Shown here: piece after piece, positions 23,701 through 53,244 of the stretch
How positions within the stretch are numbered: position 1 is the stretch's first letter
Layout of the letters: every line of letters begins with the position of its first letter
NCBI GenBank assembly: GCA_040905385.1
Contig: JBBDRP010000002.1
Span: 226,292-290,291, forward strand
Source of the DNA: Minisyncoccota bacterium
Lineage (GTDB): Bacteria > Patescibacteriota > Minisyncoccia > Phycocordibacterales > SW-6-46-9
DNA length: 64,000 nt
Direction of reading: 5' to 3'
The notes under the pieces: model-generated
Databases searched by the model: none
Told to the model about the DNA's origin: nothing
What the model saw: the letters and a program-made list of their open reading frames with translations, nothing else
Position numbers and translations under genes: made by a program

Positions 23701-26700
23701 ATCTTAACCGCGGATATATGGAATCAGGTTGTAGCGGTTGTAAATGGTACTAGCGCAATTTTGTATCATAACGGTCAGGAGATAACTTCAGGAACAATCG
23801 ATGCATATACAGGTAATGGCAATAATATTGCTTTTGGTGATAAACCACTAAGTTCAGGGTCTAGCATGAATGCTCTTAATGGGTCTCTGGATGAAGTTTA
23901 TATTTACAATAGTTTATTGTCTACTGACTGGATTGCCGCCGAGTACACTAACCAGTCTACCACTACTGACTTCTACACCGTCGGTAGCCTGGAAGAGCCG
24001 AGCACCGTCTTTGGCGACGATACCGATGGTGACTTTGCTGACACCGACTGGACGTATCGCGAGAAGATCACCATCAACGCCGACCAGGTGGAGGAGACGC
24101 TGACCGACTTCCCGGTCTATGTTGATCTGTCTGATTTCGGATCACAGTTTTTCAACAATGTCCGCAGTGATGGTGGTGATATTCGCATCACCGCCAGCGA
24201 CGGCACGACCGAGCTGGCGAGGGAAGTCGTCTCTGTGGACACTGCCTCATCGACCGGGGAAATCCATTTCAAGGCCGACGAGATCGACGCCGAGGCCGAT
24301 ACCGACTTTTACATTTACTATGGCAATACCGCCGCGGTCGACTACGTCGTTACGGATACGTACGGCCGTAACGCGGTGTGGAGTAACGGCTATGCTGGAG
24401 TTTGGCACACAGGCGAAGACTCTGCTACACAAACGTTTGATTCTACTGGTAACAATAATACGGGAAACTTTCAGGATAACTTACCAACCACGCAGTCTGG
24501 AAAGATTGGAGATACGCAAGATTTTGATGGCACTAGTGATTATATTGATGCGGGTACTGACTCTAGCCTAGACATCACAACTGAAATCACGGTCGGTGTC
24601 TGGGTGAATCCTGATAATACTGGTGGTGACTATACAGGAATAGTAAATAAAAGCAGAGCAGATACGGCTGGTTTCTGGATGGGGTATTCAGCGAACGGTG
24701 ATATAGTTAGATGGGAGACTAATGATGCAGGAGGAAGTTGGCATGAAGTTGATATGCCTTTAATAGATGCCGAAGTAGGAGAATGGAATCACTTCGTAGG
24801 TGTTTATGATGGTAGTGAGCTTATAGGTTATAAAAATGGTTCTCAATCAGGAACTCCTGATAGTTTTACTGGAGAATTTGAAACTACAACTAATTCCCTA
24901 AAGTTTGGAGATTTTGAGGTTGCGGATAGATGGTTTGATGGCATGCTTGATGAGATTCGTATCTCCAGTGCTGCGCGCTCTGCCGACTGGATCGCCACCG
25001 AATACAACAACCAAAATGCTCCTAGTAGCTTCTACACCATCTCTGGCAGCCCTTCCGAAGCGCCGGTGCTGCTGACTCCGGAAGATACGGCCACCGAGGT
25101 GAGCCGGGCGCCGACGCTGGACTGGCAACCGGTCCAATCAGCTACCGAGTACCAGGTGCAGGTGTCGCCAACCTCGACCTTCTCATCTATCACGGTGGAT
25201 GCGAACGCAACCGACAGCGAGATAGCTCTGGGCACGCCGTATCCGTCATTGGATGCCAGCACAACCTATCACTGGCGCGTACGCACGGTGGATGGGCAGA
25301 GCTTCGGCGCCTGGTCCACCGACTTTTCCTTTACGACAGCTGCTGGTCTGGCCGGCAGCGGTACCGAGGCCGATCCGTACCTCATCAGTACTCCACAAGA
25401 CCTGGATGACATTCGCAATGACCTGGATGCCTACTACCGACTTACGCAGGATATTGATCTGACCTTTGATACACGGGATCCAAATGGAGATTTTTATAAT
25501 GCTGGTGATGGTTGGCAGGAAATAGATAACTTTGATGGTGAATTCGATATGGGTGGATATAGTATTATCGGAGCCCGAATTTTTAATGGATTTTTTGATA
25601 ACATTGGATCAAATGGGCTTATACATTCAGGAAAATTTGCCGATTGCGAAGTTCATGGAGGATATGATCAAGGAGTTATTAACGAAACAGGAGGGGCAGG
25701 ATTAATTAAAGAAGTTGTAGTAGATAATTGTTCTGTGGCGTCGGGCAATACTACAAGCCGTAGAATTGGTGGATTTAGCGGTAGAGGAATCTCTTCTCAG
25801 GATGTTATTTCACGTAATCTTGTGCTCGGTGGAGAAGGTGATAAGGGTGCAAACACTGGACGAGTTTTTGATACCAAGGTGTACACACGAAACCTCATTC
25901 ACAATGTGAGTTGGGAGGGTGTAAGTGGTCAAACTGAAAATCCTCTTTTTGGGTGGATTCAATCTGGTGGAAATCCGACGGTAAATGATGTGTTTTTTGA
26001 TGATGATACGCTTGATTATGCCGGAACTCGAACTGACCAAGGTACCGGGCTAACTACCACCGAGGCGCAGGATATTACTACGTATGAAAATGCTGGGTGG
26101 GACATCGTTCCGATTGCTCAGCACGACGGGCAGCGGTCAACAGCAATTTGGTACATCGATGATGGCAATGATTATCCACGTCTGTGGTTCGAGTACGAGG
26201 GTGAGGGCTGGAAAGATGGCTGGAGCCACCGTGAGAAGGTCACGATCAAGTCATCGGCGGTGGATGCGACGCTGGAAGACTTTCCGGTCTATGTCGACCT
26301 AGCTGATTTCGGCGCCACGTTCTTTAATAACGTCCGTACTGATGGTGGCGATATTCGTGTCACCAAGGCGGACGGTACTACCGAGCTGGCCCGGGAGGTT
26401 GTCTCGGTAGATACCGCCTCCTCGACCGGTGAGTTACACTTCAAGGCCGACCGCCTCGCCAGCACCACCGACACAACCTTCTACGTTTATTATGGTAATC
26501 CAGATGCGTCCGAGTACGCGACTGATTATGCGTATGGTCGCAATGTTGTCTGGAGCGATTATGAAAACGTCTACCACCTCGACGAGCAAGGAGACGGTAC
26601 CACCGGAGAGCATATCGACTCAGCCGGTAACCACGACCTGACGGCTGGATACTTTTCTGCTGGTATTCCGAATCGAGTTGATGGAAACCTCGGGTACGCG

Positions 26701-29700
26701 CAGCAGTTTAACGGAACTGATACATCAATTGGTGGTGTATTTAATCTGAGTGCTAAGGATGAAATGGTCGTGTCGGTATGGGCGCAACCAACGGCCAGCG
26801 GGCAGTCCAGCCGGTCGGGAATATTTGGATACAGTGAATATAACGTTAGTTCAGCCTATCGATTGGGTGGATTTAGATTTACAAGCAGTGATTTAGGTGG
26901 GCTTGATATCTATCTAGATGATGGAAGTGCCGAGTGGTTTAACTCCACACTGACACTGAATCTCAACCAATGGAATTACATGGTGGGTAGATTTGAATCA
27001 GGGGTTACAAAAGATATTCTTATCAATGACCAGTGGGATGAACGTACTGCACCGACAGGCAGTTTGGCAGCGGGGACCTCAAGCATAGCACTTGGTGAAG
27101 TGCAGGAAGATCCTGTGAACCGCCGATTTCAGGGGCTCATTTCCGAGGCTCGCTACAGCACCGTAAAGAGGAGCCAGGAATTTTATGCCGCTGAGTATAC
27201 GAACCAATCGACCACCACCGATTTCTATACGGTCGATACGACACCAATCCAGATTGACAGCATCGAGGATTTGGATGATGTACGCAACGACCTATCAGCC
27301 AGTTATGAGTTGACGCGCAACCTGGATTTCGACGACTGCGCCTCTTATGACACCTGTGCCAATATGGACACCTACACAACCGGCAGTGGGTGGGACCCAA
27401 TTGGCACGAGTGGCGACCCTTTTACAGGTCAATTTGATTTCAAAGGACACTCAATTACCGGATTAATGATAAATAGATCTAGCACCGACTATCAAGGACT
27501 TTTCGGGGCCTTGGGACTTGATGGTTATATTCATAGCGGTTCAATTATTAATGCAGATGTTATCGGTGAGAAACGTACTGCAGTACTTGTTGGTTTCATG
27601 GATGGAAATGCACTTGTCGAACATATTTCTATTAGGAATAGTACTGTTGGAGGGTCGTACAGTGGTAACAAGGGACTGTTAGTTGGATGGTTAAATAGCA
27701 CTACTTCTCTGATAAGAGATTCTTATGCTCAAGGGCAAGCAATTGTAGGTAATTATAGTGCTGCAGCTGGAGAAATACATCCTGTTGATGCTCAGTTTCC
27801 TTCTGAAAATCTTTACTTTGTCGGAACTCTTGATTATGGTGCCAGTAGCCCTGTTGGAGGTATTGATGCGGCAGATAATGCTTTAAATAGTTTTTATGAT
27901 CAGGATGTTGCAGGAGAAATTTTTGGAGCAGATCCAGGAAATGCAACAACAACGGTCATAATGCAGGACATTGATACGTATATTAATGCTGGCTGGGACA
28001 TCGTCCCGATCGAAGAGCATGACGGGCAGGAGTCGACGGCGACCTGGTTTATTGATGATGGTAATGACTATCCGAAGCTGTGGTTTGAACGCGAGGGGGC
28101 CCAAAGCACAGCGTTTGGCGACGACCCCGACGGCGACTTTGCCGACACCGACTGGAGCCACCGCGAGAAGATCACCATCAACCCCGACAAGGTGCCGACG
28201 GTTACAAGTAGCGTTAATTCGCGCGTCACGCAATCCAGTGATGATGCTGAGGAAAAGCTTTCCGATAATAGTATGCTTATCTCAAGTTCTGATCTTGAAC
28301 TTATCGCTGATGGCACGTCGCCTGGCGGCGATCAAGAGATCGGACTGCGTTTCCAGAACATTACTATTCCCCAGGGTGCCGTGATCACCAACGCCTACAT
28401 CGAGTTCCAGACCGACGAGACCAACAGCACTACCACCAACCTAACCTTCCGCGCGGAGGATAATAACGATACGACGACCTTTACTACCGGTAGTGGTGAC
28501 ATTACCAACCGATCCAAGACAGCCGCCTCGGTTGATTGGAACAACGTGCCGGCCTGGAATACGATTAGCGAAAAGCATCAGACCCCGGATCTGTCGGCGG
28601 TGGTGCAGGAGGTGGTTGATCGCGCCGGCTGGCAGAGTGGTAACGCGATGGCGATGTTTGTCACTGGTGACGGAACCCGGATTGCCGAGGCATATGATGG
28701 CGAGGCGGCCAATGCACCGCTGCTGCATATCGAGTACGAATCTCCAGCGGCAACCTTGACGGATTTTCCAGTTTATGTTGATCTGGCCGATCTGTCGGAT
28801 ACGTTTTTCGTCTACGTAGCAAATGACGGGGCGGACATCCGCGTGACGGCCGGTGACGGGCTGACCGAGCTTCCGCGGGAAGTCGTGTCTGTGGATAGCG
28901 TCGGGAAGACGGGTGAGCTGCACTTCAAGGCCGATGCAGTATACGGGTCGGTCGGGACTGAGTTCTACATCTACTACGGTAATCCGTTTGCTGTGAATTA
29001 TTCAGCCACGGATACGTATGGTGCTCAGAATGTGTGGAATAGTAATTATGTGTTGGTTAGCCATGATGGAGGTGCCACAGATTCAACAAGCAATGGAAAT
29101 AATGGAACTGCTAATGGTGATGCTACTGCAGGGATAGCTACTGGTAAAGTTGGTACTGCTGCAGAATTTGATGGAGTTAGTGATTCATTCCAGATAGCAG
29201 ACGACGCTTCGCTTGATACACCCTCCGCAATCACTATTACAGCTTGGGTAAATGCGAACTCATTCAAGTCTGACTTCAGCGAAATTGTTAGTAAGAAGTT
29301 TGATACTGGTTATGATTTCTTGGTCGACAATGATGCTGGCACAAACGATTTGGAATTCATAAGTTTTGATGCAGATATTCTTCAGTATTCCAACGATAAC
29401 GTGGTTGCCACTAGTACTTGGTCTCATGTGGCTGTTACATATGATAAATCAAATGTAAATTTTTATGCGGATGGCTCGTATGAAGGAGGCGGTGCAGAGA
29501 CGGCAGATATTGGTACGAATAATGAGGATCTGTATATCGGTAGCGATGCAGGTAATAGCTGGGAGTGGAATGGACTTATTGATGAAGTCAGGATACTCTC
29601 TAGTTCTCAATCTGCTGACTGGATTACAGTCGAGTATAATAACCAGTCGTCTCCATCCACCTTCTACTCTGTAGGTACGCAGGAGATTAGCGGCGAAGAC

Positions 29701-30423
29701 ACGATACCGCCGTATCCAGATCCGAGCGAGTTTGCCGTGGCACCAGATGGGGCCAGCACGTCGTCGATCACGATGACGGCTGCCACCTCTACGGACGGCG
29801 AGGGATCAACCCCGGTCGAGTACTACTTCAACTACCAGGCGTGTGCTGCCGATGCCGGCACCGGCTGGAGTCACTCTGGTTGGTTGGTGGAGACGTCGTA
29901 TACCGACGAGAATCTCCAGGTTAACCAGTGCTACAGCTACCGCGTAAAGACCCGGGATAGCCTGGGTAACGAGACGGCGTACTCGGCAACATCCAGTGCC
30001 TACACCGCCGCCGCAATTCCGGACGCGCCGTCACTTTCCAACCCGACGGAGACGACGCTGGACTTGGTGAACAATGAAGGTGCCAACCCAACCGCTAATC
30101 CCGACACCACCTTTGCGGTACAAGTCAGCGATACCTCACCAGGAGACCAGACCTGGACAAACCAGTACGTCAACGCCAGTGGTGAGCCGTCAGCCACCGC
30201 CGTCTGGCTGACAGACAGCCAGCTGAGCGGCTTGACGGTTACCATGCTGGAGCCGAACATCACCTACACCTTCCGCACCAAGGCTCGCAATGAAGACGGT
30301 GACGAGACCGGCTGGTCGGCGACAACCGTGGCCTCGACCTCGTCTGACTACCCAGATGAGACGGACACCTCAACCCGTCTGCGCGGCGGCTCGACCATCC
30401 GCGGTGGCAGCACAGCGCAGTAA
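20728..30423 (+). CDS. Giant (3231 aa) surface protein, paralogous to gene 2. Has an N-terminal TM anchor, at least seven DUF2341-like modules interleaved with LamG_3 domains, two FN3 domains and a distinct insert domain (nt ~28225-28745). C-terminus ends in ...LRGGSTIRGGSTAQ.
   Basis: Same module signatures as 13177-19737. Long near-identical stretches shared with gene 2 (e.g. AAGLAGSGTEADPYL.STPQDLDD.RNDL; TTAEAQDI.TY.NAGWDIVPI..HDG..STA.WYIDDGNDYP.LWFE). Terminal FN3: YYFNYQACAADAGTGWSHSGWL...YSYRVKTRDSLGNET. Confidence 0.85.
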   Translation: MMILEFYKKVKEFIGRHPRMVAVVGVTVAVLVILGSVGTQAAWYSSTGDGPTWQYRQKITIDADQVDAELTDFPVYVDLSDFGSDFFSNVAADGGDIRITTADGTTELAREVVSVDTASSTGELHFKADSLSASSDSEFFIYYGSSGASDYAVTDTYGRNAVWSDYRFVSHDAGYTDSSGALAQGTLFNGITPNDSAGIIGKATLFDKPSQQYVQLGDTIIPPSSDFTFDVWAEQFDFTGTTVSDESLILTQNDSGSTNATFVHGSNARQNHITGLWDINNSRTLEGPDIRGNGWVKLQIRRDGNEFNLFHNNVLQDATTTAITIPDAANAYLGAYENNGPERFFTGLISEVRSAYTARSDDWIATEYTNQNNTTDFYTIGAQDTQPDSNVAFGANSYGDFADTRWSHREKITIDAAQVDADLADFPVYVDLADLSTTFFQNTNVTCGDIRVTAGDGLTELAREVVACDTASSTGELHFKADSLSASSDTEFYIYYGNNSANNYIHDEQFGRDNVWSDGYAGVWHLSEGSGEARDSTANSSNGTNNGATQGVVGQVGGGYDFDGTDDYVKITENFVSSPSELTISAWFKKESGGDVYETVLHKGSADTVGSSDYWLGVSGDDNLTATIGANTGVGWDAGETTTSVNLGQWYHMAATWDGSVVEVYLDGQFNKQYSLSSYGDLNTDTRFGSSADGTNYQFRGTASEIRIYNKSISGDEISATYRNQNSPTTFYTVGVNEASAGLFGDNPSGDFADADWGYREKITIDADQVGATLTDFPVYVDLSNLSATFFDNVTASGGDIRVTAGDGTTQLAREVVSVNTASSTGELHFKADSISSTTDTSFYIYYGNPNADDYAVGDTYGAENVWSNETLAAFHLEENAVNSSDDNFNGTINGSPAWVTGVIYSALDFLGTNGNNVEISSALQSDITNNSYTVKAWINPRLTGSSNQAIIDTGSEGDGQMRFFMNDTDGSFKIQNTASFTGTGVRSSAGILTADIWNQVVAVVNGTSAILYHNGQEITSGTIDAYTGNGNNIAFGDKPLSSGSSMNALNGSLDEVYIYNSLLSTDWIAAEYTNQSTTTDFYTVGSLEEPSTVFGDDTDGDFADTDWTYREKITINADQVEETLTDFPVYVDLSDFGSQFFNNVRSDGGDIRITASDGTTELAREVVSVDTASSTGEIHFKADEIDAEADTDFYIYYGNTAAVDYVVTDTYGRNAVWSNGYAGVWHTGEDSATQTFDSTGNNNTGNFQDNLPTTQSGKIGDTQDFDGTSDYIDAGTDSSLDITTEITVGVWVNPDNTGGDYTGIVNKSRADTAGFWMGYSANGDIVRWETNDAGGSWHEVDMPLIDAEVGEWNHFVGVYDGSELIGYKNGSQSGTPDSFTGEFETTTNSLKFGDFEVADRWFDGMLDEIRISSAARSADWIATEYNNQNAPSSFYTISGSPSEAPVLLTPEDTATEVSRAPTLDWQPVQSATEYQVQVSPTSTFSSITVDANATDSEIALGTPYPSLDASTTYHWRVRTVDGQSFGAWSTDFSFTTAAGLAGSGTEADPYLISTPQDLDDIRNDLDAYYRLTQDIDLTFDTRDPNGDFYNAGDGWQEIDNFDGEFDMGGYSIIGARIFNGFFDNIGSNGLIHSGKFADCEVHGGYDQGVINETGGAGLIKEVVVDNCSVASGNTTSRRIGGFSGRGISSQDVISRNLVLGGEGDKGANTGRVFDTKVYTRNLIHNVSWEGVSGQTENPLFGWIQSGGNPTVNDVFFDDDTLDYAGTRTDQGTGLTTTEAQDITTYENAGWDIVPIAQHDGQRSTAIWYIDDGNDYPRLWFEYEGEGWKDGWSHREKVTIKSSAVDATLEDFPVYVDLADFGATFFNNVRTDGGDIRVTKADGTTELAREVVSVDTASSTGELHFKADRLASTTDTTFYVYYGNPDASEYATDYAYGRNVVWSDYENVYHLDEQGDGTTGEHIDSAGNHDLTAGYFSAGIPNRVDGNLGYAQQFNGTDTSIGGVFNLSAKDEMVVSVWAQPTASGQSSRSGIFGYSEYNVSSAYRLGGFRFTSSDLGGLDIYLDDGSAEWFNSTLTLNLNQWNYMVGRFESGVTKDILINDQWDERTAPTGSLAAGTSSIALGEVQEDPVNRRFQGLISEARYSTVKRSQEFYAAEYTNQSTTTDFYTVDTTPIQIDSIEDLDDVRNDLSASYELTRNLDFDDCASYDTCANMDTYTTGSGWDPIGTSGDPFTGQFDFKGHSITGLMINRSSTDYQGLFGALGLDGYIHSGSIINADVIGEKRTAVLVGFMDGNALVEHISIRNSTVGGSYSGNKGLLVGWLNSTTSLIRDSYAQGQAIVGNYSAAAGEIHPVDAQFPSENLYFVGTLDYGASSPVGGIDAADNALNSFYDQDVAGEIFGADPGNATTTVIMQDIDTYINAGWDIVPIEEHDGQESTATWFIDDGNDYPKLWFEREGAQSTAFGDDPDGDFADTDWSHREKITINPDKVPTVTSSVNSRVTQSSDDAEEKLSDNSMLISSSDLELIADGTSPGGDQEIGLRFQNITIPQGAVITNAYIEFQTDETNSTTTNLTFRAEDNNDTTTFTTGSGDITNRSKTAASVDWNNVPAWNTISEKHQTPDLSAVVQEVVDRAGWQSGNAMAMFVTGDGTRIAEAYDGEAANAPLLHIEYESPAATLTDFPVYVDLADLSDTFFVYVANDGADIRVTAGDGLTELPREVVSVDSVGKTGELHFKADAVYGSVGTEFYIYYGNPFAVNYSATDTYGAQNVWNSNYVLVSHDGGATDSTSNGNNGTANGDATAGIATGKVGTAAEFDGVSDSFQIADDASLDTPSAITITAWVNANSFKSDFSEIVSKKFDTGYDFLVDNDAGTNDLEFISFDADILQYSNDNVVATSTWSHVAVTYDKSNVNFYADGSYEGGGAETADIGTNNEDLYIGSDAGNSWEWNGLIDEVRILSSSQSADWITVEYNNQSSPSTFYSVGTQEISGEDTIPPYPDPSEFAVAPDGASTSSITMTAATSTDGEGSTPVEYYFNYQACAADAGTGWSHSGWLVETSYTDENLQVNQCYSYRVKTRDSLGNETAYSATSSAYTAAAIPDAPSLSNPTETTLDLVNNEGANPTANPDTTFAVQVSDTSPGDQTWTNQYVNASGEPSATAVWLTDSQLSGLTVTMLEPNITYTFRTKARNEDGDETGWSATTVASTSSDYPDETDTSTRLRGGSTIRGGSTAQ

Positions 30424-30426
30424 ATC

Positions 30427-30452
30427 AAAAAAGCGTTATGCGCTTTTTTGAT
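30427..30452 (+). terminator. Rho-independent terminator after giant gene 3
   Basis: AAAAAAGCG-TTAT-GCGCTTTTTTGA hairpin followed by a T-run, immediately after the stop codon. Confidence 0.75.
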
Positions 30453-30481
30453 TTAGAGGTAAGAGCTAAGAGACATGATAT

Positions 30482-30886
30482 ATGAGCAAAGAACCCAAAA
30501 AGGAGAACAAAATTACATCATTCACTGATCTGACAACGTGGCAAAAAGGCCATGAACTAGTAGTGGAGATTTATGAGACAACCGAGGAGTTTCCTAAGCG
30601 AGAGGTGTATGCGCTTACCGACCAAATTCATCGATCGGCTGTATCAGTTACTTCCAACATTGCTGAAGGGTTTGGTCGTTTTAGCTACGCCGATAGACTA
30701 CATTTTTACCGCATGGCTCGTGGATCACTGACAGAATTACAGAATCAACTCTTGATTGCTCGTGATGTTGGGTATCTCGGCACGGACAAATTTAAAGCCT
30801 TGGCAAGTAAAACCACTACGGTAGAGAAATTACTACAAGGCTTGATTCGAGCCACGAGTGATAGGAAAGATTCACATACCTCTTAG
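30482..30886 (+). CDS. Four-helix-bundle protein (23S rRNA intervening-sequence protein family, TIGR02436-like)
   Basis: ...TDLTTWQKGHELVVEIYETTEEFPKREVYALTDQIHRSAVSVTSNIAEGFGRFSYADRLHFYRMARGSLTELQNQLLIARDVGYL... matches the family pattern (W..A..L...IY.....FP..E...L..Q..R...SI..NIAEG). Confidence 0.75.
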   Translation: MSKEPKKENKITSFTDLTTWQKGHELVVEIYETTEEFPKREVYALTDQIHRSAVSVTSNIAEGFGRFSYADRLHFYRMARGSLTELQNQLLIARDVGYLGTDKFKALASKTTTVEKLLQGLIRATSDRKDSHTS

Positions 30887-31033
30887 CTCTTGTCTCTTGG
30901 ATGTGAAATGCTCTGATATATGTGATTTTGCTACAATGCATAGGAATCGCAGGTGTGGATAGTAAAACCTGTACCTCTGTTATACTAAAGGAGTAGCTTT
31001 TTTTAACTAACTCTTTATATGATGTAAGCCTAT

Positions 31034-32254
31034 ATGTCGCATAAGATCCTCATGTTTGGTTGGGAATTTCCGCCGCATAACAGTGGGGGTCTTGGCGTTG
31101 CCTGTGAGGGAATTGCCCGCGCCTTGGTGCGGGCGGGGCATAATCTGCACTTTGTGCTGCCACGTTCTTACGATCTACTCGATAAAAACATCTCCTTTGT
31201 ATTTGCTGATACCGAGCGCGAGACGCTCAAGGTGACGCCGATCGCCTCGACGCTGTACTCGCCGTATGCCACCAGTACCAGCTACCAAGAGGCAGTGAAA
31301 AAGGGGCTGATAGCACCCGGTCCGTACGGAAACTCACTAATGGCCGAGGTGATGCGGTACAGCTATCAGGCTGGTGCTATTGCGGAGGAGACTGATCCAG
31401 ATATCATCCACGCTCATGACTGGCTGTCCTTTCCGGCGGCGATGGCGGCGAAGCGGGCGACTGGTAAGCCCTTCGTGGCGCATGTGCACGCCACCGAGTA
31501 TGACCGGACCGGTGGTAACGGGCTCAACCAAGAGGTTTATGATATCGAGCGGGCCGGGGTGCAGGCGGCCGATAAGGTGCTCGCTGTTAGCGCCTTTACC
31601 CGCCAGACGCTAATTGACCATTACGGGCTAGATCCAAAAAAGGCTGGTGTCGCCCACAACGGTATCGAGAGCGAGCAGAAGCCGAAGCTACAGCCGGTAC
31701 TAAAGAATATAAAGAATCGTGGCGGTAAGATTGTGCTTTTTCTCGGTCGGATCACGATCCAGAAGGGGCCGGATTACCTGATGGAGGCGGCGCGTCGGCT
31801 TTTGGAAATCCGCGACGACACCTACTTTGTAGTGGCCGGATCCGGGGATATGCATGACCAAATGGTCGAGCGAGCTGCCGAGTTAGGTCTGGCCGACCGG
31901 GTATTTTTTCCGGGATTTGTGCGTGGCTGGAAGATTGATCAGCTGTATCAATCAGCCGATCTTTTTGTGATGCCGTCGGTGTCCGAGCCGTTTGGTATTA
32001 CGCCGCTGGAGGCGCTGATGAACAAGACGCCGGTTTTGATTTCCAAGCAGTCCGGAGTTTCGGAGGTGCTGGATCACGCGCTGACCGTCGACTTTTGGGA
32101 TACCGAGAAGATGGCCGACCAGATGAATGCGGTACTGGAGCACCCGGCGCTGTATGCCGAGCTGTCACGAAACGGGAATAATGAGGTGCATAAGATTAGC
32201 TGGGATGATACTGCTCGGTCTATTACTGCTGCGTACGATTTGGTTGCTGGGTAA
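31034..32254 (+). CDS. GT4-family glycosyltransferase, archaeal-type glycogen(starch) synthase-like
   Basis: N-terminal ILMFGWEFPPHNSGGLGVACEGIARALVRAGH (E..PP..GGLG motif). C-terminal GT-B fold with EPFGITPLEA (glycosyl transferase group 1). Confidence 0.8.
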   Translation: MSHKILMFGWEFPPHNSGGLGVACEGIARALVRAGHNLHFVLPRSYDLLDKNISFVFADTERETLKVTPIASTLYSPYATSTSYQEAVKKGLIAPGPYGNSLMAEVMRYSYQAGAIAEETDPDIIHAHDWLSFPAAMAAKRATGKPFVAHVHATEYDRTGGNGLNQEVYDIERAGVQAADKVLAVSAFTRQTLIDHYGLDPKKAGVAHNGIESEQKPKLQPVLKNIKNRGGKIVLFLGRITIQKGPDYLMEAARRLLEIRDDTYFVVAGSGDMHDQMVERAAELGLADRVFFPGFVRGWKIDQLYQSADLFVMPSVSEPFGITPLEALMNKTPVLISKQSGVSEVLDHALTVDFWDTEKMADQMNAVLEHPALYAELSRNGNNEVHKISWDDTARSITAAYDLVAG

Positions 32255-32287
32255 AGATTCGTAATTTTTAGCTCTTAGCTCATACCT

Positions 32288-32310
32288 TTCAGAACATGGA
32301 ATGTTCTGAA
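32288..32310. repeat. Palindromic hairpin TTCAGAACAT-GGA-ATGTTCTGAA between the GT4 and GH57 genes. Same core as 35761-35779.
   Basis: 10-bp stem read directly, followed by AAAAA. The second copy CAGAACAT-GAA-ATGTTCTG lies between the GH15 and MFS genes. Confidence 0.7.
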
Positions 32311-32336
32311 AAACCCGTGATATAATAAATACACAT

Positions 32337-33605
32337 ATGGCCACTGTTTGTTTTTATTTTCAAGTACACCAGCCGTACCGCCTGCGGAACTTTTCTATTT
32401 TTGAGACCACGGAGGCAGCTGACGGCACGCCTCGAGACTATTTTTCTGATGTGTCCGAGACGTCGAGAAATAATAGGAGGGTGATGCAGAAGGTGGCACG
32501 TAAGTCCTACTTGCCAACCAATCAGACCTTATTGAAGCTACTGCGCGATCATCCCGAATTTCGCGTCTCTTTTTCCTTTTCTGGACTTGCGCTGGAGCAG
32601 TTTGCCGAGTTTGCTCCGGAGGTCTTGGAGTCATTTAAGGCACTGGTTGGTACTGGCCAAGTCGAAGTGCTTTCCGAGACGTATCATCACTCGCTGGCCT
32701 TCTTTTATGACAGGGATGAGTTCACCAACCAGGTTGCCGAGCATGGCGAGCTAATTTACGACCTGTTTGGCGTCACCCCACGCGTATTTCGGAATACGGA
32801 GCTCGCCTACAATAATGATCTGGGCCAGTGGGCAGACGAGCACGGCTACGACGGAGTACTGGCAGAGGGCTGGGATCCGGTGCTGGAGTGGCGTTCGCCA
32901 AACTTTGTGTACCAGCCGCCTGGTGCCGAAAAGACCCGACTTCTGCTGAAAAATTACAAGCTTAGCGATGATATTGCCTTCCGATTTTCAGATAGAGACT
33001 GGAAGGGTTGGCCACTAACGGCCGAGAAGTTTGCCGGCTGGGTGAGCGACCATAACGCCGCCCGAGATACCAGCGGCGAGCTGATAAATCTGTTTATTGA
33101 TTACGAGACCTTTGGCGAGCACCAGTGGGAGGATACGGGTATTTTTGACTTCTTGAGGAAGTTGCCGGCTGCACTTCTGGAGCATCCGGACAACGCCTTC
33201 ATGACACCGTCAGAGGTGATTGCTAATCATGAAGTTCGCGACGAGATGGACATTCCGCACACGGTGACCTGGGCAGATACCGAGCGCGACCTATCGGCCT
33301 GGCTCGGCAACGAGATGCAGCAGTCGGCGGTCAAGGCGCTGTATGATCTGAAACCGCTCGTGGTGGCCACGGACGACCCGGACATTCTTCGTGACTGGCA
33401 GCGCCTGCAGACGTCAGACCACCTGTACTACATGTGCACGAAGTGGTCTGCCGATGGTGATGTGCATGCGTATTTCAATCCGTATGATTCACCATACGAG
33501 GCGTTTGTGACCTACATGAATGTACTTACTGATCTACGTGAGCGCTGCGCGCCGCAGAACGAGTCTCCCACAGCCATGGCTCCCGCGGCAGTTGAAGTTG
33601 GGTAA
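32337..33605 (+). CDS. Glycoside hydrolase family 57 (alpha-amylase / alpha-glucan branching or 4-alpha-glucanotransferase-like)
   Basis: N-terminal FYFQVHQPYRL GH57 signature. Length 422 aa fits the GH57 catalytic (beta/alpha)7 region. Confidence 0.7.
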   Translation: MATVCFYFQVHQPYRLRNFSIFETTEAADGTPRDYFSDVSETSRNNRRVMQKVARKSYLPTNQTLLKLLRDHPEFRVSFSFSGLALEQFAEFAPEVLESFKALVGTGQVEVLSETYHHSLAFFYDRDEFTNQVAEHGELIYDLFGVTPRVFRNTELAYNNDLGQWADEHGYDGVLAEGWDPVLEWRSPNFVYQPPGAEKTRLLLKNYKLSDDIAFRFSDRDWKGWPLTAEKFAGWVSDHNAARDTSGELINLFIDYETFGEHQWEDTGIFDFLRKLPAALLEHPDNAFMTPSEVIANHEVRDEMDIPHTVTWADTERDLSAWLGNEMQQSAVKALYDLKPLVVATDDPDILRDWQRLQTSDHLYYMCTKWSADGDVHAYFNPYDSPYEAFVTYMNVLTDLRERCAPQNESPTAMAPAAVEVG

Positions 33606-33631
33606 TTTTCTACGGTATAATAGAAGCAGCG

Positions 33632-33769
33632 AGTAGAAAGCCGAAAGTTCAAAGTCTGTAAAGTCATAAAGGATCTTTACAAAATATAGCCGTGACGGCA
33701 TACTCACTCTCTCGATTTATAAGGAAAATCTAATTGCAACTTTTAACTTTTTACTTTTGACTAATTTTT
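33632..33769. repeat. ~135-bp intergenic element, copy 1. Has inverted AAAGTC/ACTTT-rich arms (GTAGAAAGCCGAAAGTTCAAAGTCTGTAAAGTC ... AACTTTTAACTTTTTACTTTTGAC) and a conserved core GGAAAATCTAATTGCAAC.
   Basis: Homologous to 37010-37129 (core GAAAAATCTAATTGTAAC, arms GTCGAAAGTCTAAAGTCAAAAGTCGTAAAGTT / AACTTTCGACATTTGACTTTTAGC). Immediately upstream of the GH15 start. Confidence 0.7.
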
Positions 33770-33772
33770 AAT

Positions 33773-35758
33773 ATGCCACGATCATTTACAGCCGGAAATG
33801 GAGAGATGCTTGTCGGAGTCGATGAGTATGGTTTCATGCAGGATCTCTACTATCCACACATCGGATTAGAGAACCATGTTGGTGATGCACACCAACACCG
33901 CATCGGTATTTTTGTTGATGGTGGAATTCACTGGCTGTCGGACAAGGATTTTGAGGTTTTGGCCACAACAAATCCGGAGACGATGATGTCCGATATCGTG
34001 GCCCGTAACACTAAGATCGGTGTAACAGTGACCATGCAGGACGTTGTTTATAATGAGAAGCCAATTTTAGTACGTGAGGTAACGGTGAAAAATACCTGGG
34101 ATGTGGTCCGAGATATAACATTGTATTTTGGTCAGGAGTTCGAGATTAGTCAGTCACGGCAGGCGAGTACTGCATACTTTGACCCAGCCAATGAATGCAT
34201 CATCCATTACCGCGGTCGCCGCGCCTTTTTGATGAACGCGGTTGATGATGACGGTTCTTTTACACAGTATACGACTGGTGTTTCCGGGATTGAGAACAAA
34301 GAGGGATCCTGGCGTGATGCCGAGGATGGTCAGCTGCAGGGTAATCCAATAGAGCACGGACCGGCTGATTCTGTTTTTGGACTGGAGCGTTCGTACGAAG
34401 GCAAGTCTGAGCGCACCACCTACTTCTGGCTGGTGGCAGGAAAGTCTATTAATGAGGTAATCAGGCTTAACAAGTATGTTCACGACCGTACACCGGAGCA
34501 CCTGCTTAAAACAACGAGTAACTACTGGCGTGCCTGGCTGGATCGCTGTCCGGATCATTTTCATGACCTTTCCGAGCCGGCGCAGGATCTCTTTAGTCGG
34601 TCGTTGTTAATTATTCGAGCGCATGCCGACAAGGATGGCGGTATTCTGGCTTCGAGTGATTCGGATATGCTGCAGCGGGGTAAGGACTCGTACGAGTATG
34701 TTTGGCCGCGGGATGGTTCCTACATCACCCGAGCGCTGGATCAGGTGGGCGCCTGGAAGGTCAGTGAACGGTTCTTTTACTTCATGAATTACGTTATGGA
34801 CGGTGACGGCTACCTAATGCATAAGTATGGTCCGGACGGGTCGCTGGGATCATCCTGGCATCCGTGGTTTTATCAGGATATGTACCAGTTGCCGATTCAG
34901 GAGGATGAGACGGCAACGGTTCTGCATACGCTGTGGCAGCATTACCAGCAGTCGCAGGACCTAGAGTTCATTGAGAGTATTTACAACTCCTTTATAGAAC
35001 GAGCGGCGAACTTTTTGATAACCTATCGACACCACGAAACCAAGCTTCCAAAACGCAGTTATGATCTCTGGGAGGAGCGGATTGGTGTGCATACCTACAC
35101 GGCCGCGTCGGTGTATGGTGGCCTGCAGGCAGCTAGCAATTTTGCGGGACTTTTGGGTAAGGATGTCGAGGAGAAGCATTACAAAGCCAAGGCAAATGAG
35201 ATCAAGGATGCAATTTTGAAGTATTTATATAACGAGGACGAGGGCTGCTTTGTACGGAGTGGTGAGACCGAGGATGGTGCCTTTGTTCAGGACACCACCA
35301 TTGATTTTTCATCTACGTTTGGTGTCTGGTACTTTGGCGTACTGCCGGGTCGAGACGATCGACTAGTTAACTCGATGGCGATGACGCAGGAAGCACTAGG
35401 TGTACCTGGTGTTGGTGGCTTTGCTCGTTACGAAGGTGATACCTACTATCGCAACAAAAATCATGAAGGTGTGACTGCACCCGGTAATCCGTGGTTTGTG
35501 ACAACATTATGGTACGCCCAGTACGTGACCGAGCTAGCTGACAATGAAGAGGAGATCAAGCAGGTGGCGCATATTCTGGAGTGGGTGACAGACCACACTA
35601 CGACGGCTGGGCTGCTTTCCGAGCAGCTAGATCTTAAGACTAGCGAGCCGCTGTCGGCAACACCATTGGTCTGGAGCCACGGGGAGTACGTTATTACCGT
35701 GGTGAAGTATCTCGAGAAGCTTGAGGAGCTTGGGCTCTGCCGCAATTGTAAGAAGTAG
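33773..35758 (+). CDS. GH15-family glucoamylase / glucodextranase-like (bacterial-archaeal type, N-terminal beta domain + (alpha/alpha)6 barrel)
   Basis: YEYVWPRDGSYITRAL (GH15 W.RD motif), ...SSWHPWFYQ..., 661 aa. Confidence 0.8.
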   Translation: MPRSFTAGNGEMLVGVDEYGFMQDLYYPHIGLENHVGDAHQHRIGIFVDGGIHWLSDKDFEVLATTNPETMMSDIVARNTKIGVTVTMQDVVYNEKPILVREVTVKNTWDVVRDITLYFGQEFEISQSRQASTAYFDPANECIIHYRGRRAFLMNAVDDDGSFTQYTTGVSGIENKEGSWRDAEDGQLQGNPIEHGPADSVFGLERSYEGKSERTTYFWLVAGKSINEVIRLNKYVHDRTPEHLLKTTSNYWRAWLDRCPDHFHDLSEPAQDLFSRSLLIIRAHADKDGGILASSDSDMLQRGKDSYEYVWPRDGSYITRALDQVGAWKVSERFFYFMNYVMDGDGYLMHKYGPDGSLGSSWHPWFYQDMYQLPIQEDETATVLHTLWQHYQQSQDLEFIESIYNSFIERAANFLITYRHHETKLPKRSYDLWEERIGVHTYTAASVYGGLQAASNFAGLLGKDVEEKHYKAKANEIKDAILKYLYNEDEGCFVRSGETEDGAFVQDTTIDFSSTFGVWYFGVLPGRDDRLVNSMAMTQEALGVPGVGGFARYEGDTYYRNKNHEGVTAPGNPWFVTTLWYAQYVTELADNEEEIKQVAHILEWVTDHTTTAGLLSEQLDLKTSEPLSATPLVWSHGEYVITVVKYLEKLEELGLCRNCKK

Positions 35759-35760
35759 CT

Positions 35761-35779
35761 CAGAACATGAAATGTTCTG
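35761..35779. terminator. Shared hairpin between the convergent GH15 (+) and MFS (-) genes (CAGAACAT-GAA-ATGTTCTG)
   Basis: 8-bp stem in the 21-bp gap between two converging stop codons. No strong T-run; function as a terminator is inferred. Confidence 0.5.
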
Positions 35780-37000
35780 CTACAGCGTATCGACAATTGG
35801 AAGGGCAAGTAACCCACCAACTAAGAGCAGGCCGGCGACACCAACAAAGATAAACTCAAACGGTGCAAAGAGAAGTACTGCACTTGCCAGTACCGGAGCA
35901 ACAATATATGCAAGTGGTCTGATCATTCTCAGGACAGACAACTCATCGGTGTCATAACTTTCGACATGCTTAAAGAAGTAGCCGTCGGACATGACTTCGA
36001 TCATAGTGGCGCCGATACGAGTTCCAAATAGCAGAGCTGCCCATACCCAGATCTCGGTGCTCTCTACAAAGCCCAGTAGAGCGGTAAAGAAGGCAGCAAT
36101 GATAAATCCACCGATTAGGAGTTCCTTTTCACCAAGATAGTGGTCAGCGATCTCTCCGAGAGGACGACCCAGTAAGACAAAGGGAATTAGCATAATAGAA
36201 AAGATAATTCCAATAGCACTAAAGGAGAGACCGATGAATTGGTAGAGGTAGATTGGGGTGTATACGACCATCATGGCGTAAAACATATTCAGTACGAGCA
36301 TAGTTCCAAGTGTAAAACGGACGTTTACATCGCGCCAGACTCTTTTGAGACTTTTCCAGAGCGTTGTGCGGGCATAATCAGCGTCGGGGAAGTTACTGAA
36401 CTTCTTTAGAAGAATCGTTAGCAGCGGCAGAATAACAACAGCTGAAATTAGATAAATCTGCCAGAAGGTATCCTCACCGACGGCGAATCCGGCAATCAGC
36501 GGTCCTAGAATGAAGGCGATGTAGGTAAGAGTAATCAAGGTTCCGCGAATCTCGCCTGTCTTGGAATCATCAGAAAATTTCTCTAAAAATATATCTAGGT
36601 TAAAGCGAATCACGGCGGTAAGCATCCAGTGTGCCATGAAGGCAGTGATAAGCAGCCAGATAGGAGCGCTTTGGATAGCCAAAATACTCACGGCGATTAG
36701 TTCTGCAATTACCAGAGCAAGCGTAGTAGCATAGTTACCAAACTTCGGTAGCGCTCGGGTAACAGCAGACATGGTCATGATTGCCAGCACAGCCGCGGCG
36801 CTAAAGGCGATACTGGTTGATGTCTCGGAAAGTATGGTGTTCAAAAAGTTGGAGTTAATGTACAGCGGAAAGACGTAATGCAGCGTAAAGAAGAAGTACA
36901 TGATGTACACCACAACTCGCAGCTCCTCAGGGGAATCTGGCTTATCCTCGGTATCCTCAGTCCTTGTGCGTTTGAGATGGAATGGTACGTGAATTTGCAT
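35780..37000 (-). CDS. Polytopic membrane transporter, probably MFS family
   Basis: 406 aa with ~11-12 hydrophobic helices. No specific family motif recognised. Confidence 0.6.
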   Translation of the reverse strand: MQIHVPFHLKRTRTEDTEDKPDSPEELRVVVYIMYFFFTLHYVFPLYINSNFLNTILSETSTSIAFSAAAVLAIMTMSAVTRALPKFGNYATTLALVIAELIAVSILAIQSAPIWLLITAFMAHWMLTAVIRFNLDIFLEKFSDDSKTGEIRGTLITLTYIAFILGPLIAGFAVGEDTFWQIYLISAVVILPLLTILLKKFSNFPDADYARTTLWKSLKRVWRDVNVRFTLGTMLVLNMFYAMMVVYTPIYLYQFIGLSFSAIGIIFSIMLIPFVLLGRPLGEIADHYLGEKELLIGGFIIAAFFTALLGFVESTEIWVWAALLFGTRIGATMIEVMSDGYFFKHVESYDTDELSVLRMIRPLAYIVAPVLASAVLLFAPFEFIFVGVAGLLLVGGLLALPIVDTL

Positions 37001-37009
37001 ATTTAAAAG

Positions 37010-37129
37010 AGTCGAAAGTCTAAAGTCAAAAGTCGTAAAGTTTAACGTTCATAATATCACGCCTCCAGTTTGGATTTATTAGAAAAATCTAATTGTAACT
37101 TTCGACATTTGACTTTTAGCTTTTAACTT
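37010..37129. repeat. ~135-bp intergenic element, copy 2 (see 33632-33769)
   Basis: Same arm and core sequences as copy 1. Lies immediately upstream (on the minus strand) of the MFS start. Confidence 0.7.
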
Positions 37130-37158
37130 AACTTGTTCTTACCTAGTATAACAAAAAA

Positions 37159-37187
37159 CCTGGGAACATAATGTTCCCAGGTTTTTT
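37159..37187. terminator. Bidirectional rho-independent terminator
   Basis: AAAAAA-CCTGGGAACAT-AA-TGTTCCCAGG-TTTTTT: a 10-bp GC-containing stem flanked by an A-run and a T-run. Confidence 0.8.
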
Positions 37188-37199
37188 AAATAACTCACC

Positions 37200-37830
37200 G
37201 GGTTGAGTTATTTAGCCAGCGTGAAGGATGGCCAGTATTTATCTATTACAAAAGCCGCCATCTTCTCGATAGCGGCTTTCTCGAACGACTTGAATGAGCA
37301 CCCGATATCTCTTGCTGCTAAGCAGGAAGAGAACGGTTGTGCGAATTTACCCGCACACTCGAAGCTTCGAGTGTTAGCTGGCAAAGCCAGCGCGGGTTTA
37401 TGTCCGGAAATTATATGTAATTTCCCTGGACCAAGTCGGCGGGTAAAGCGAGCGCTTCGACTTGCGGAGTGCTCGCGGCTTCCGAAGTCAAGACTTCTTA
37501 TCTTGTTATTTGATTAGCGAAGTCGAGCGACTCAAGTCGGCGGAATAAGCTTGGTGCCGTGGAGTACACGGTGCCAAGCGGCTTAGGGAGTTTAAGTAGC
37601 AATCTGGCGAACTGTTAATTACTCGAAGGACTCAAGTCCGCACGAGTGCTCGCAAATCACAAAACTTTGTAGATAGCGTAGACATGAAGCGAGCTGAAAA
37701 TCTTCGACACAGTAGTGCGAAGATTTCAGTGAGCCAACACTAAGGATGGAATGGATCATATCGAACTATTGATTAATCCAACGCCTCAAGGCGGTAAAAA
37801 TTGTCGGAAATTACATTCTGTTGTAGACTG
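37200..37830. ncRNA. Candidate large structured non-coding RNA region (~630 bp, ORF-free, dense hairpins). Strand and identity unknown.
   Basis: Only a spurious 104-aa ORF. Contains a perfect 20-nt palindrome ACACTCGAAGCTTCGAGTGT (37355-37374); a 12-bp stem CTTGGTGCCGTG-GAGUA-CACGGTGCCAAG with two G-U wobbles (37550-37578); GTCCGGAAATTA-TATG-TAATTTCCCTGGAC; CTGAAAATCTTCG...CGAAGATTTCAG; and repeated words AAGTCGGCGG, CTCAAGTC, GAGTGCTCGC. Confidence 0.3.
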
Positions 37831-37831
37831 C

Positions 37832-39589
37832 CTATACTCCGATAACCACCGGAATCACAAGCGGTTCCTTGCCCGTCTCCTGTCGGAGGTAGCTGCGGGT
37901 TCGTTCGGTTAGCTTGCTCTTTACGTAGTCAAAGTTAACTGACTTACGGCCTTTAGCAGCCTCCTCGACAACATTGCGAACGAGGTCACGTGTGTCGGAA
38001 AGAAGTTTCTTGCTTTCTCGGAGATAGACAAATCCGCGGCTGATAAGATCCGGAGACTTACGCAGCTTCCCGTTCTTTGGGTTAATGGCCACGATTATTA
38101 CGAAGATACCTTCAGTCTGTAGTATTTCGCGATCACGGATGACAACATCCTGAATGTTACCAATACTGAGTCCATCAACGGTAAGTGTCTCTCCAGCGGC
38201 CTTTTGCGGCAGCTTTTCGAACTTTGTACCGTTCTCTTTAATTTCCACAATGGATCCATTCTCGGGAACAATTACGTGATTATCTGGCATACCAAGATCC
38301 TTGGTAGCTAGCTTCTTGTGCAGCTCGAGCATATAACGGTTTCCGTGCTGTGGCATGAAGAATTTTGGCTTCAGCATTTCGTGCAGCCAACGAATTTCAC
38401 CACGGTTTCCGTGTCCGGAAGCATGAACGTGTAGGTCAGTGGTTTTTGAGGTAATGATATCGGCACCCGAGGCCGCAATGTTGTCCTTTAGTGATGCCAC
38501 TGCTTTTTCGTTTCCAGGTACAACCGACGCAGATAGTACGACAGTGTCCTGCCCGTTAAAGGCTAGATGATGGTGGGTCTGGTTTGCCATACGGTTGAGG
38601 GCGGCAAATTCCTCTCCCTGTGATCCGGTAGCAAGAATCAAAATCTCGTTTGGTTGGTAGTTATCGACATCCTTGCCTTGAATAAATATGCCATCTGGTG
38701 CCTTGATGAGCCCGGCTTCCTGCGCAACAGCAACGTTCGTACGCATGGATCGACCTTCAAGTACGACTTTGCGGTTGTACTGACCAGCCAAATCAATAAT
38801 TCGTGCCATACGTTCGATTAGCGAGGCGAAGGAGGCAATGATCAGTCGTCCGTGCGTCTGCTGGAAGATTTTTTCTAGGTCGCGGTGTACCTTCCATTCC
38901 GGTACTCCGAATCCAGGATTCTCAATGTTAGTGGAGTCCATCATCAGCATCAGAACATCCTTCTCGGCGACTTTTTTGTATACTTGCTGCTCTTTCTCGG
39001 AAACAGTTCCATCCACGTGGTCCAGCTCGAAGTCGGCCTGGTTGATAATCTGTCCGTATGGTGTGTCGATGATGACACCCATAGAGTCAGGAATTGTGTG
39101 TGCCATCTCATAGAATCGTACTGGTGTGCTACCGAGCGTGATTTCATCCTCACCCGTAACGACATGAATATCAAGTGGTTCGTTGTCAGGAAATTCTTCC
39201 TGACGCTTTAAAATCATCAGTTTAGAAAAACTGCGACAGTAAATTGGAGGATTGCCGATACGATCCATAATATAGGGAATACCACCGATGTGGTCGAGGT
39301 GACCGTGAGTGATGACGAGACCGCGAATTTTATCTTTGTGCTCCTCGAGGTAACGAGTATTTGGAAGCACATAATCAATTCCAGGTAGATCTTCACTTTC
39401 AAAGCTGTATCCGCAGTCGATGATAATGATGTCATTGGCTGTCTCTATCATGGCCATGTTGCGTCCGACCTCCTCGACTCCGGACAGCGGAATGATGCGA
39501 ATGTCTCCTTCGGCGACTTCAGGAATTGGATCGCCTTTGCGTTCATCTAATTCTCTGTGTTGTAGATTGGTAGTTGTGTATCGTCCCAT
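37832..39589 (-). CDS. rnj: Ribonuclease J (metallo-beta-lactamase / beta-CASP RNase)
   Basis: ...IIPLSGVEEVGRNMAMIETANDIIIIDCG...LVITHGHLDHIGGIPY... HxHxDH motif and beta-CASP layout, 585 aa. Confidence 0.9.
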   Translation of the reverse strand: MGRYTTTNLQHRELDERKGDPIPEVAEGDIRIIPLSGVEEVGRNMAMIETANDIIIIDCGYSFESEDLPGIDYVLPNTRYLEEHKDKIRGLVITHGHLDHIGGIPYIMDRIGNPPIYCRSFSKLMILKRQEEFPDNEPLDIHVVTGEDEITLGSTPVRFYEMAHTIPDSMGVIIDTPYGQIINQADFELDHVDGTVSEKEQQVYKKVAEKDVLMLMMDSTNIENPGFGVPEWKVHRDLEKIFQQTHGRLIIASFASLIERMARIIDLAGQYNRKVVLEGRSMRTNVAVAQEAGLIKAPDGIFIQGKDVDNYQPNEILILATGSQGEEFAALNRMANQTHHHLAFNGQDTVVLSASVVPGNEKAVASLKDNIAASGADIITSKTTDLHVHASGHGNRGEIRWLHEMLKPKFFMPQHGNRYMLELHKKLATKDLGMPDNHVIVPENGSIVEIKENGTKFEKLPQKAAGETLTVDGLSIGNIQDVVIRDREILQTEGIFVIIVAINPKNGKLRKSPDLISRGFVYLRESKKLLSDTRDLVRNVVEEAAKGRKSVNFDYVKSKLTERTRSYLRQETGKEPLVIPVVIGV

Positions 39590-53197: not shown

Positions 53198-53244
53198 CGA
53201 TGACCGGGGAGTGCTTATTTACCACCTAACACACAGTCACTGAT

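Follow-up and report, generated by a model that had tools for sequence, protein, structure and literature searches.

Does a bacterium of the candidate phyla radiation (CPR) lay down and consume an alpha-glucan reserve of its own, or does it digest glucans taken from a host? This question is raised by a gene cluster in the 64,000-nucleotide (64-kb) stretch of a Minisyncoccota bacterium genome analyzed here (contig JBBDRP010000002.1; hereafter, the window), in which a GT4-type glycosyltransferase (GT), a glycoside hydrolase of family GH57 and a glucoamylase-family enzyme (GH15) are encoded in succession, followed by a convergent gene for an MFS transporter. The family assignments and the intact catalytic residues of GT, GH57 and GH15 lead us to interpret the cluster as, probably, an archaeal-type storage cycle in which a glycogen-like alpha-glucan is built and consumed in the cytoplasm. 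A first, sequence-only reading of the window had delineated four open reading frames (ORFs) as one glucan module, and their boundaries match the ORF list exactly:

31034–32254, plus strand: GT4-type retaining GT-B glycosyltransferase, 406 amino acids (aa); candidate nucleoside diphosphate (NDP)-glucose-dependent alpha-1,4-glucan (glycogen) synthase
32337–33605, plus strand: GH57 of the "alpha-amylase" (AAMY) subfamily, 422 aa; catalytic machinery intact; proposed synthase partner (chain remodeling or branching)
33773–35758, plus strand: GH15 glucoamylase-family exo-hydrolase, 661 aa; predicted to release glucose from alpha-glucan or maltooligosaccharides
35780–37000, minus strand: MFS_1 transporter, 406 aa (PF07690, 69.4 bits); a neighbor, not a component

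In the proposed cycle, GT would elongate alpha-1,4-glucan chains from NDP-glucose, as its homology and gene context suggest. GH57 would partner the synthase on the growing polymer, a role suggested by gene coupling and by Sulfolobus genetics, cutting alpha-1,4 chains via a Glu155/Asp255 retaining mechanism and then either transferring the fragments (branching or disproportionation) or trimming the chains, and this action would be needed for the polymer to accumulate. GH15, by homology an exo-glucoamylase, would free glucose from the chain ends.

Families and catalytic residues of the three enzymes

The family calls of the sequence-only reading (a GT4 glycogen-synthase-like enzyme, GH57, GH15 and MFS) are borne out by Pfam and NCBIfam searches, with scores far above chance. 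Its premise of a reduced genome fits as well: the best matches are named Candidatus Paceibacterota or Patescibacteria, and a 100%-identical GT (P0121) is encoded on an NCBI contig of 784,156 bp.

GT has the domain architecture of GT4, with a Glyco_transf_4 N-terminal domain and a Glycos_transf_1 C-terminal domain (PF13439, 93.6 bits; PF00534, 127.7 bits), an E-X7-E motif and the Arg/Lys phosphate-binding motifs; the N-terminal domain also matches the starch-synthase catalytic domain PF08323 (68.9 bits; cutoff 22.7). It aligns over the full length with the glycogen synthase of Pyrococcus abyssi, and the GGL, HDW, RxxxQKG (GRxTxQKG) and EX7E motifs match. This synthase and GlgM, the two best relatives of GT in the PDB, both form alpha-1,4-glucosidic bonds from NDP-glucose; GlgM is the top match, but only over residues 111–401.

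GH57 is recognized by PF03065 with 240.6 bits (E-value 2.8e-71) and contains all five conserved sequence regions (CSRs) of the family, namely, QVHQP, GQVEVL, RNTELA (with E155), FIDYETFGEH (with D255) and LQTSDHLYY. The catalytic nucleophile Glu155 in CSR-3 and the proton donor Asp255 in CSR-4 are invariant in 74 of 74 homologs, and in a profile search Glu155 aligned with the WLTERV nucleophile motif of the Thermococcus litoralis enzyme (1k1w). The fingerprint of the AAMY subfamily consists of Glu or Gln in logo position 1, Arg or Glu (not Trp) in position 12, Thr in position 23 and Tyr-Tyr in positions 35–36, with a mean length of 414 aa (Martinovicova and Janecek, PMC6037648). The window protein, at 422 aa, has Q9, R152, T258 and Y364-Y365 in these positions, residues that are kept in 59 to 74 of the 74 homologs. 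Sequence and profile searches against the PDB returned the 4-alpha-glucanotransferase of T. litoralis as the only useful match, and no solved structure exceeds 18% identity; thus, there is no close structural template for GH57.

In the public Logan contig L082, which comes from the same genome as the window, the automated call for this gene (6220–7341) is only 373 aa long, its start lying 49 codons after the conserved one. We reject this start because it would cut off CSR-1 with its HQP motif. The calls for GH15 and MFS on that contig are likewise shorter than the longest ORFs.

GH15 matches PF00723 (96.8 bits; cutoff 22) and, along its full length (residues 12–647), the "oligosaccharide amylase" model TIGR01577 (343.9 bits). 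W433-E434 (DLWEE), the general-acid motif, and E617-Q618 (LSEQ), the general-base motif, are invariant in 44 of 44 sequences and place it in the family. Its scores lie below the curated equivalog cutoffs (343.9 vs 820.7 bits for TIGR01577 and 72.7 vs 741.9 bits for the glucoamylase model TIGR01535), and they therefore do not specify whether it acts on a polymer, an oligosaccharide or another substrate. In L086, the closest relative of the window (GH57 85% identical), the GH15 gene (5909–7999) is split into ORFs of 198 and 461 aa, which may reflect a frameshift or a pseudogene, and a 23S-rRNA-IVP four-helix-bundle gene (8032–8376) is inserted after it.

The core folds or catalytic motifs of GT, GH57 and GH15 start at residues 4–12, which leaves no room for a signal peptide; the chemistry of all three enzymes is thus predicted to be cytoplasmic.

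The similarity of GT to GlgM raises the possibility that it makes a small alpha-glucoside instead of a polymer, for example, maltose-1-phosphate (the GlgM product), trehalose (the TreT product) or a solute of the sucrose-phosphate or glucosylglycerate type, with GH15 as the matching trehalase or glucosidase. GlgM is, indeed, the top sequence match of GT, and the GH15 family includes trehalases, the TreH models matching the window protein weakly, with 70–78 bits. We nevertheless consider this very improbable: GH15 scores far higher with TIGR01577 than with the trehalase models, GT resembles a glycogen synthase in its HDW and GRxTxQKG motifs and in its full-length alignment, no GlgE, TreS or phosphatase partner is encoded in the neighborhoods, and GH57, an alpha-glucan enzyme and the most tightly coupled partner, has no role in such pathways.

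The conserved gene pair and its neighbors in relatives

We compared the cluster with 80 species-representative loci that encode a GH57 with 54–63% identity to that of the window and were drawn from at least 596 such loci; adjacency was counted in the 68 loci where the contig leaves room, and taxa are given as lineage labels, which are unreliable for some third-party metagenome-assembled genomes (MAGs). In 67 of the 68 loci, the gene immediately preceding GH57 in the same orientation encodes GT, with a median apparent gap of 9 bp. By lineage label, this holds for 44 of 44 Patescibacteria, 9 of 9 archaeal loci (mostly, Woese-, Pace- and Nanoarchaeota), 9 of 10 Planctomycetota and 5 of 5 others. 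GH15 follows GH57 in 43 of the 68 loci, that is, in 35 of 43 from Patescibacteria, 2 of 11 archaeal and none of 7 from Planctomycetota. By contrast, no MFS homolog was detected within about 8 kb of GH57 in any of the 80 loci. Only four near relatives (GH57 79–85% identical) retain the MFS gene, and in these the entire neighborhood persists, including the unrelated genes for RNase J and a solute-binding protein. We therefore reject the transporter as a component of the module, which is how the sequence-only reading had presented it, and the cluster does not conform to a transporter-linked glucan utilization locus. From these counts, the conserved core is the GT-GH57 pair, GH15 is a frequent addition in Patescibacteria, and MFS is a bystander.

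The two members of the pair have also diverged in concert. In alignments of 62 loci, the pairwise identities of GT and GH57 co-vary with a Mantel r of 0.76, a value that none of 2000 permutations reached. The identity of GH57 between Patescibacteria and archaeal-label loci (58.9%) is close to that within Patescibacteria (61.4%). Proteins of the Paceibacteria type are nearer to the archaeal-label (DPANN) proteins than to those of the Saccharimonadia/TM7 clade, both for GH57 (58.9% vs 54.5%) and for GT (44.8% vs 40.1%). Together, these observations suggest that GT and GH57 are transferred jointly, perhaps also between domains; given the doubtful taxon labels of several third-party MAGs, inter-domain transfer is a lead only. 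A bolder form of the storage reading, supported by the closeness of the between-domain and within-Patescibacteria identities of GH57, is that the GT4-type synthase and the AAMY-type GH57 form a self-sufficient glycogen-building unit, in which GH57 would be a non-GH13, non-classical branching enzyme, and that this cassette has been exchanged among CPR bacteria, DPANN archaea and Planctomycetota. We put this forward only tentatively, as a minority possibility.

The same counts bear on the main rival of the storage cycle, namely, that the locus serves scavenging only, so that GH57, as an endo-amylase, and GH15 would digest imported host glycogen or maltodextrins, and GT would be an unrelated cell-envelope glycosyltransferase that lies nearby by chance. 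Studies of MAGs routinely read such genes in CPR and DPANN as serving starch or glycogen degradation (PMC9868632; PMC11606122; bioRxiv 10.64898/2026.09.16.751625), GT carries the name "glycosyltransferase involved in cell wall biosynthesis" in the JGI database and a generic GT4 name at NCBI, and an MFS gene is adjacent in the clade of the window itself. Chance proximity is, however, hard to square with a GT-GH57 adjacency that spans three distant lineages (67 of 68 loci) and with the co-varying divergence of the two proteins. Furthermore, the nearest solved relatives of GT form alpha-1,4-glucosyl bonds, all three enzymes appear to be cytoplasmic, and neither a maltodextrin ABC system nor a conserved transporter accompanies the module in relatives. 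Scavenging fits the coupling, the cytoplasmic location and the missing conserved transporter poorly, and we regard it as unlikely. The sequence-only reading had left the choice between storage and scavenging open; the lack of signal peptides and the conserved coupling of synthase and GH57 lean toward intracellular storage.

Several other genes recur near the pair. A ROK kinase (12 loci), PGI, class I aldolase and G6PD are recurrent neighbors in relatives, where glucose freed by GH15 could feed the adjacent glucokinase, isomerase, aldolase or dehydrogenase. In 26 of the 80 loci, a small protein (about 100–200 aa, motif F..HH....NDFA.WV), often in two tandem copies, is encoded immediately downstream of GH57 (for example, L013:9279–9578 and 10311–10616, and L068:1648–2022); it occurs in 10 of 12 archaeal and 12 of 50 Patescibacteria loci, and 30 of the 35 copies match Pfam DUF5752. 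The literature searched contained no mention of this family. The window does not encode this DUF5752-like protein, which may be an accessory factor of the GT-GH57 pair. In 8 loci (L033, L035, L039, L042, L047, L059, L070 and L080; 5 with archaeal labels), the flanks of about 8 kb around GT4-GH57 encode a eukaryote-type GT3 glycogen synthase (PF05693, 536 bits; for example, L059:4220–6004, minus strand), 1–4 genes from the pair and not always on the same strand, so that some genomes carry two putative glucan synthases close together. An apparent GH57 fusion protein in L041 was rejected because the 666-aa ORF contains no extra domain.

Known systems and the role of GH57

The closest known system is the glg cluster of the archaeon Sulfolobus acidocaldarius (glgX-gaa-glgC / amyA-glgA; PMC8158581). 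As in the window, a synthase gene and a gene for a GH57 "alpha-amylase" lie side by side in the same direction, a GH15 gene belongs to the cluster, and there is no GH13-type GlgB. The differences are that the order in Sulfolobus is amyA-glgA, the reverse of GT-GH57 in the window; that Sulfolobus GlgA is described as GT5, whereas the window GT is GT4-like and has only 406 aa; and that the Sulfolobus cluster includes glgC and a debranching gene, whereas the window cluster includes neither glgC nor a GH133 debranching gene. In S. acidocaldarius, amyA shares a transcript with glgA, strains that lack either gene accumulate no glycogen, complementation restores the accumulation, and gaa (GH15) and glgX act in degradation (PMC8158581). 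That the amyA knockout loses glycogen, with no gain, also argues against scavenging. Together with the near-universal operon coupling described above, these genetic data point to an anabolic role of GH57. The window proteins resemble those of Sulfolobus at the level of gene adjacency, family and fingerprint. The sequence-only reading had called the gene set an archaeal or Thermotoga-type toolkit, in contrast to GlgA/GlgB/GlgP. The archaeal half of this description is supported by the match of GT to the P. abyssi synthase, the AAMY fingerprint and the Sulfolobus-like gene set; the Thermotoga half is imprecise because AmyC of Thermotoga is a member of the branching-enzyme subfamily of GH57, and the window protein does not have the fingerprint of that subfamily.

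A similar GT-GH57 pairing exists in Mycobacterium tuberculosis, where the glycosyltransferase is the alpha-1,4-glucosyltransferase Rv3032, which we take to be a GT4 enzyme. Rv3032 adjoins the GH57 protein Rv3031, which is thought to form an alpha-1,6 bond (PMC2674218, PMC6629080). Rv3031, however, belongs to the glycogen branching enzyme (GBE)-type subfamily of GH57, whereas the window protein is AAMY, and the mycobacterial cluster serves the synthesis of methylglucose lipopolysaccharide, with methyl- and acyltransferases that the window cluster lacks. A GT4 of unclarified role is also found beside a GH57-amylase in Picrophilus torridus and Methanoculleus bourgensis, and has been speculated to be an uncharacterized glycogen synthase (PMC11046441, section 3.4.1). 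We liken these GT4 proteins to that of the window by family and gene context only. In that 2024 review, the pair was described as confined to a few Euryarchaeota, whereas the present survey places it in Patescibacteria, DPANN and Planctomycetota, in hundreds of species at the least. With the classical GlgC/GlgA(GT5)/GlgB(GH13)/GlgP(GT35)/GlgX system, the cluster shares its logic, alpha-glucan being made from NDP-glucose and then degraded, but none of the enzyme families, and degradation would be hydrolytic, yielding glucose, rather than phosphorolytic, yielding glucose-1-phosphate.

Several observations weigh against storage. The chief weakness is the supply of NDP-glucose. Strict signature-motif scans of the window and 81 flanks detected no NDP-sugar pyrophosphorylase or phosphohexomutase, a weak negative given the strictness of the patterns, and a Pfam survey of the window ORFs outside the two largest found no NDP-glucose pyrophosphorylase, phosphoglucomutase, debranching enzyme or phosphorylase. 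That no glgC- or pgm-like gene was found nearby also counts in favor of scavenging. The description of the four genes in the sequence-only reading as a complete set for making and breaking alpha-1,4/1,6-glucans was therefore too strong, the formation of alpha-1,6 bonds being likewise unproven. GT falls below the trusted cutoffs both for GT5/GlgA (TIGR02095, 79.5 vs 328.45 bits) and for GlgM/Corynebacterium-type glgA (TIGR02149, 133.6 vs 302.4 bits). The similarity of GH57 to Sulfolobus AmyA is seen at the level of the subfamily fingerprint only, and the fingerprint of GBE (an aromatic residue or Trp in position 12, Leu in position 23 and Phe-x in positions 35–36, with about 520–546 aa; PMC6037648) differs from the R152, T258 and Y364-Y365 of the 422-aa window protein. 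Finally, the Methanocaldococcus jannaschii alpha-amylase was reportedly assayed for hydrolysis only (PMC11046441).

This enzyme is the sole characterized member of AAMY (PMC6037648), and the window protein shares with the subfamily its length, the five CSRs, the catalytic Glu and Asp, and the diagnostic residues. The subfamily is, however, mainly archaeal, and its characterized member comes from a thermophilic archaeon, whereas the source of the window is a mesophilic CPR bacterium. By membership in AAMY, GH57 may be expected to catalyze endo-hydrolysis of starch or glycogen. The storage cycle could operate with GH57 as a plain hydrolase that supplies maltooligosaccharide primers or trims chains and forms no alpha-1,6 bonds, the polymer being essentially linear or branched by an enzyme encoded elsewhere. 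This version is possible, although we do not think it the probable one. It agrees with the presence of the AAMY and the lack of the GBE fingerprint (PMC6037648), with the hydrolysis of starch reported for the M. jannaschii enzyme (cited in PMC11046441), and with the loss of glycogen-hydrolyzing activity from Sulfolobus extracts that lack amyA (PMC8158581), and the Sulfolobus authors propose TreX as a possible branching enzyme. A profile comparison of the window protein with the Thermus thermophilus GBE (1ufa) gave an E-value of only 1. On the other side, every glycogen-containing archaeon without a known branching enzyme keeps GH57-amylase, according to the survey in the 2024 review, which asks whether it is the missing one (PMC11046441); classical GH57 GBEs hydrolyze too, and the M. 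jannaschii assays, in which no branching was reported, centered on hydrolysis; and no second candidate branching gene is present in any of 81 neighborhoods. In GH57 GBEs, a flexible loop of 17–22 residues between CSR-3 and CSR-4, usually tipped with Tyr, covers the cleft (PMC9291813). The model of the window protein has a conserved coil between the same regions (residues ~217–228) with invariant W222 and P226 and lower predicted confidence (pLDDT).

Intergenic elements, flanking genes and significance

Three short elements lie in the gaps of the cluster:

32287–32311, no strand: perfect palindrome, copy 1, TTTCAGAACAT-GGA-ATGTTCTGAAA, with 11-bp arms, in the GT-GH57 gap
32318–32326, plus strand: extended -10-like box TGATATAAT, 10–14 nucleotides upstream of the GH57 ATG; possible internal promoter
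35761–35779, no strand: palindrome, copy 2, CAGAACAT-GAA-ATGTTCTG, occupying the whole interval from the GH15 stop codon to that of the convergent MFS gene

The box, TG(n)TATAAT, is found in the same relative position in all four closest relatives (L083–L086), that is, in five genomes including the window. It is a possible internal promoter which, judging from its position, would give a GH57 mRNA with next to no leader, too short for a Shine-Dalgarno site. A scan of 30300–37900 for promoter and terminator consensus sequences gave counts not above those in shuffled sequences, and we therefore claim no operon boundaries.

The core of the palindrome, CAGAACAT-N3-ATGTTCTG, has exactly two copies in the 64 kb (chance expectation 0.01), both inside the glucan module, and copy 1 would overlap the -35 region of the putative GH57 promoter. 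A conserved operator is rejected because neither the four closest relatives nor the 80 distant loci contain the palindrome. An intrinsic terminator is unlikely: the T-run of copy 1 is on the 5' side and its A-run on the 3' side, the wrong polarity, and canonical terminators are found elsewhere in the region. The pair could represent an operator or a strain-specific palindromic insertion. Canonical bidirectional intrinsic terminators, with stems of 15–16 bp flanked by A- and T-runs, are located at 30421–30455, after a giant ORF, and at 37153–37187, between MFS and RNase J, so that this genome uses standard hairpin terminators, in contrast to the palindrome pair.

The rest of the window is typical of CPR in content, with giant LamG/DUF2341 proteins, RNase J, GroEL, ribonucleotide reductases, MurJ and LepA. 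Three giant ORFs in succession (2138–13117, 13177–19737 and 20728–30423; 3659, 2186 and 3231 aa) occupy about 28 kb just upstream of the module and presumably encode surface proteins. The 2186-aa protein contains Laminin_G_3/DUF2341 domains (Pfam), as does its homolog upstream of the module in L086, and the 3231-aa protein contains an internal repeat unit, ...DFADTDWSHREKITI...DFPVYVDL...GDIRVT...ELAREVV... Directly upstream of GT is a 23S rRNA-intervening-sequence/four-helix-bundle (Avd-like) gene (30482–30886); homologs occur near the module in L021, L036, L051 and L086 in varying positions, as expected of a scattered multi-copy gene family. Two ribonucleotide reductase systems are also encoded, a class I-like pair (51863–54921), in which the small (NrdB-type) subunit carries a fused ATP-cone and the short large subunit (558 aa) has none, and a class II-like enzyme of 775 aa with its own ATP-cone (55492–57819).

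Starch and glycogen genes have been reported in CPR genomes since at least 2017 (PMC5220378), and the cluster thus belongs to a known kind. The glycogen-like gene set is real, common in bacteria with tiny genomes and largely ordinary; less appreciated is that the GT-GH57 pairing is strict and phylogenetically broad. The GT-GH57-GH15 trio is also carried by a cultivated Saccharibacteria strain, TM7i (locus L079, CP075337), and glucan storage is mentioned neither in the paper on this strain nor in a 2026 review of the phylum. The coupling of GT and GH57 in three distant lineages provides comparative evidence on the question, posed in the 2024 review, of what branches glycogen where GlgB is lacking (PMC11046441), and mesophilic candidate orthologs such as the window GH57 are alternatives to the Sulfolobus protein, for which every expression system tried has failed (PMC8158581). 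Should the module indeed serve storage, some host-dependent bacteria of ultra-small size would hold a carbon reserve of their own, which would affect their survival between hosts.

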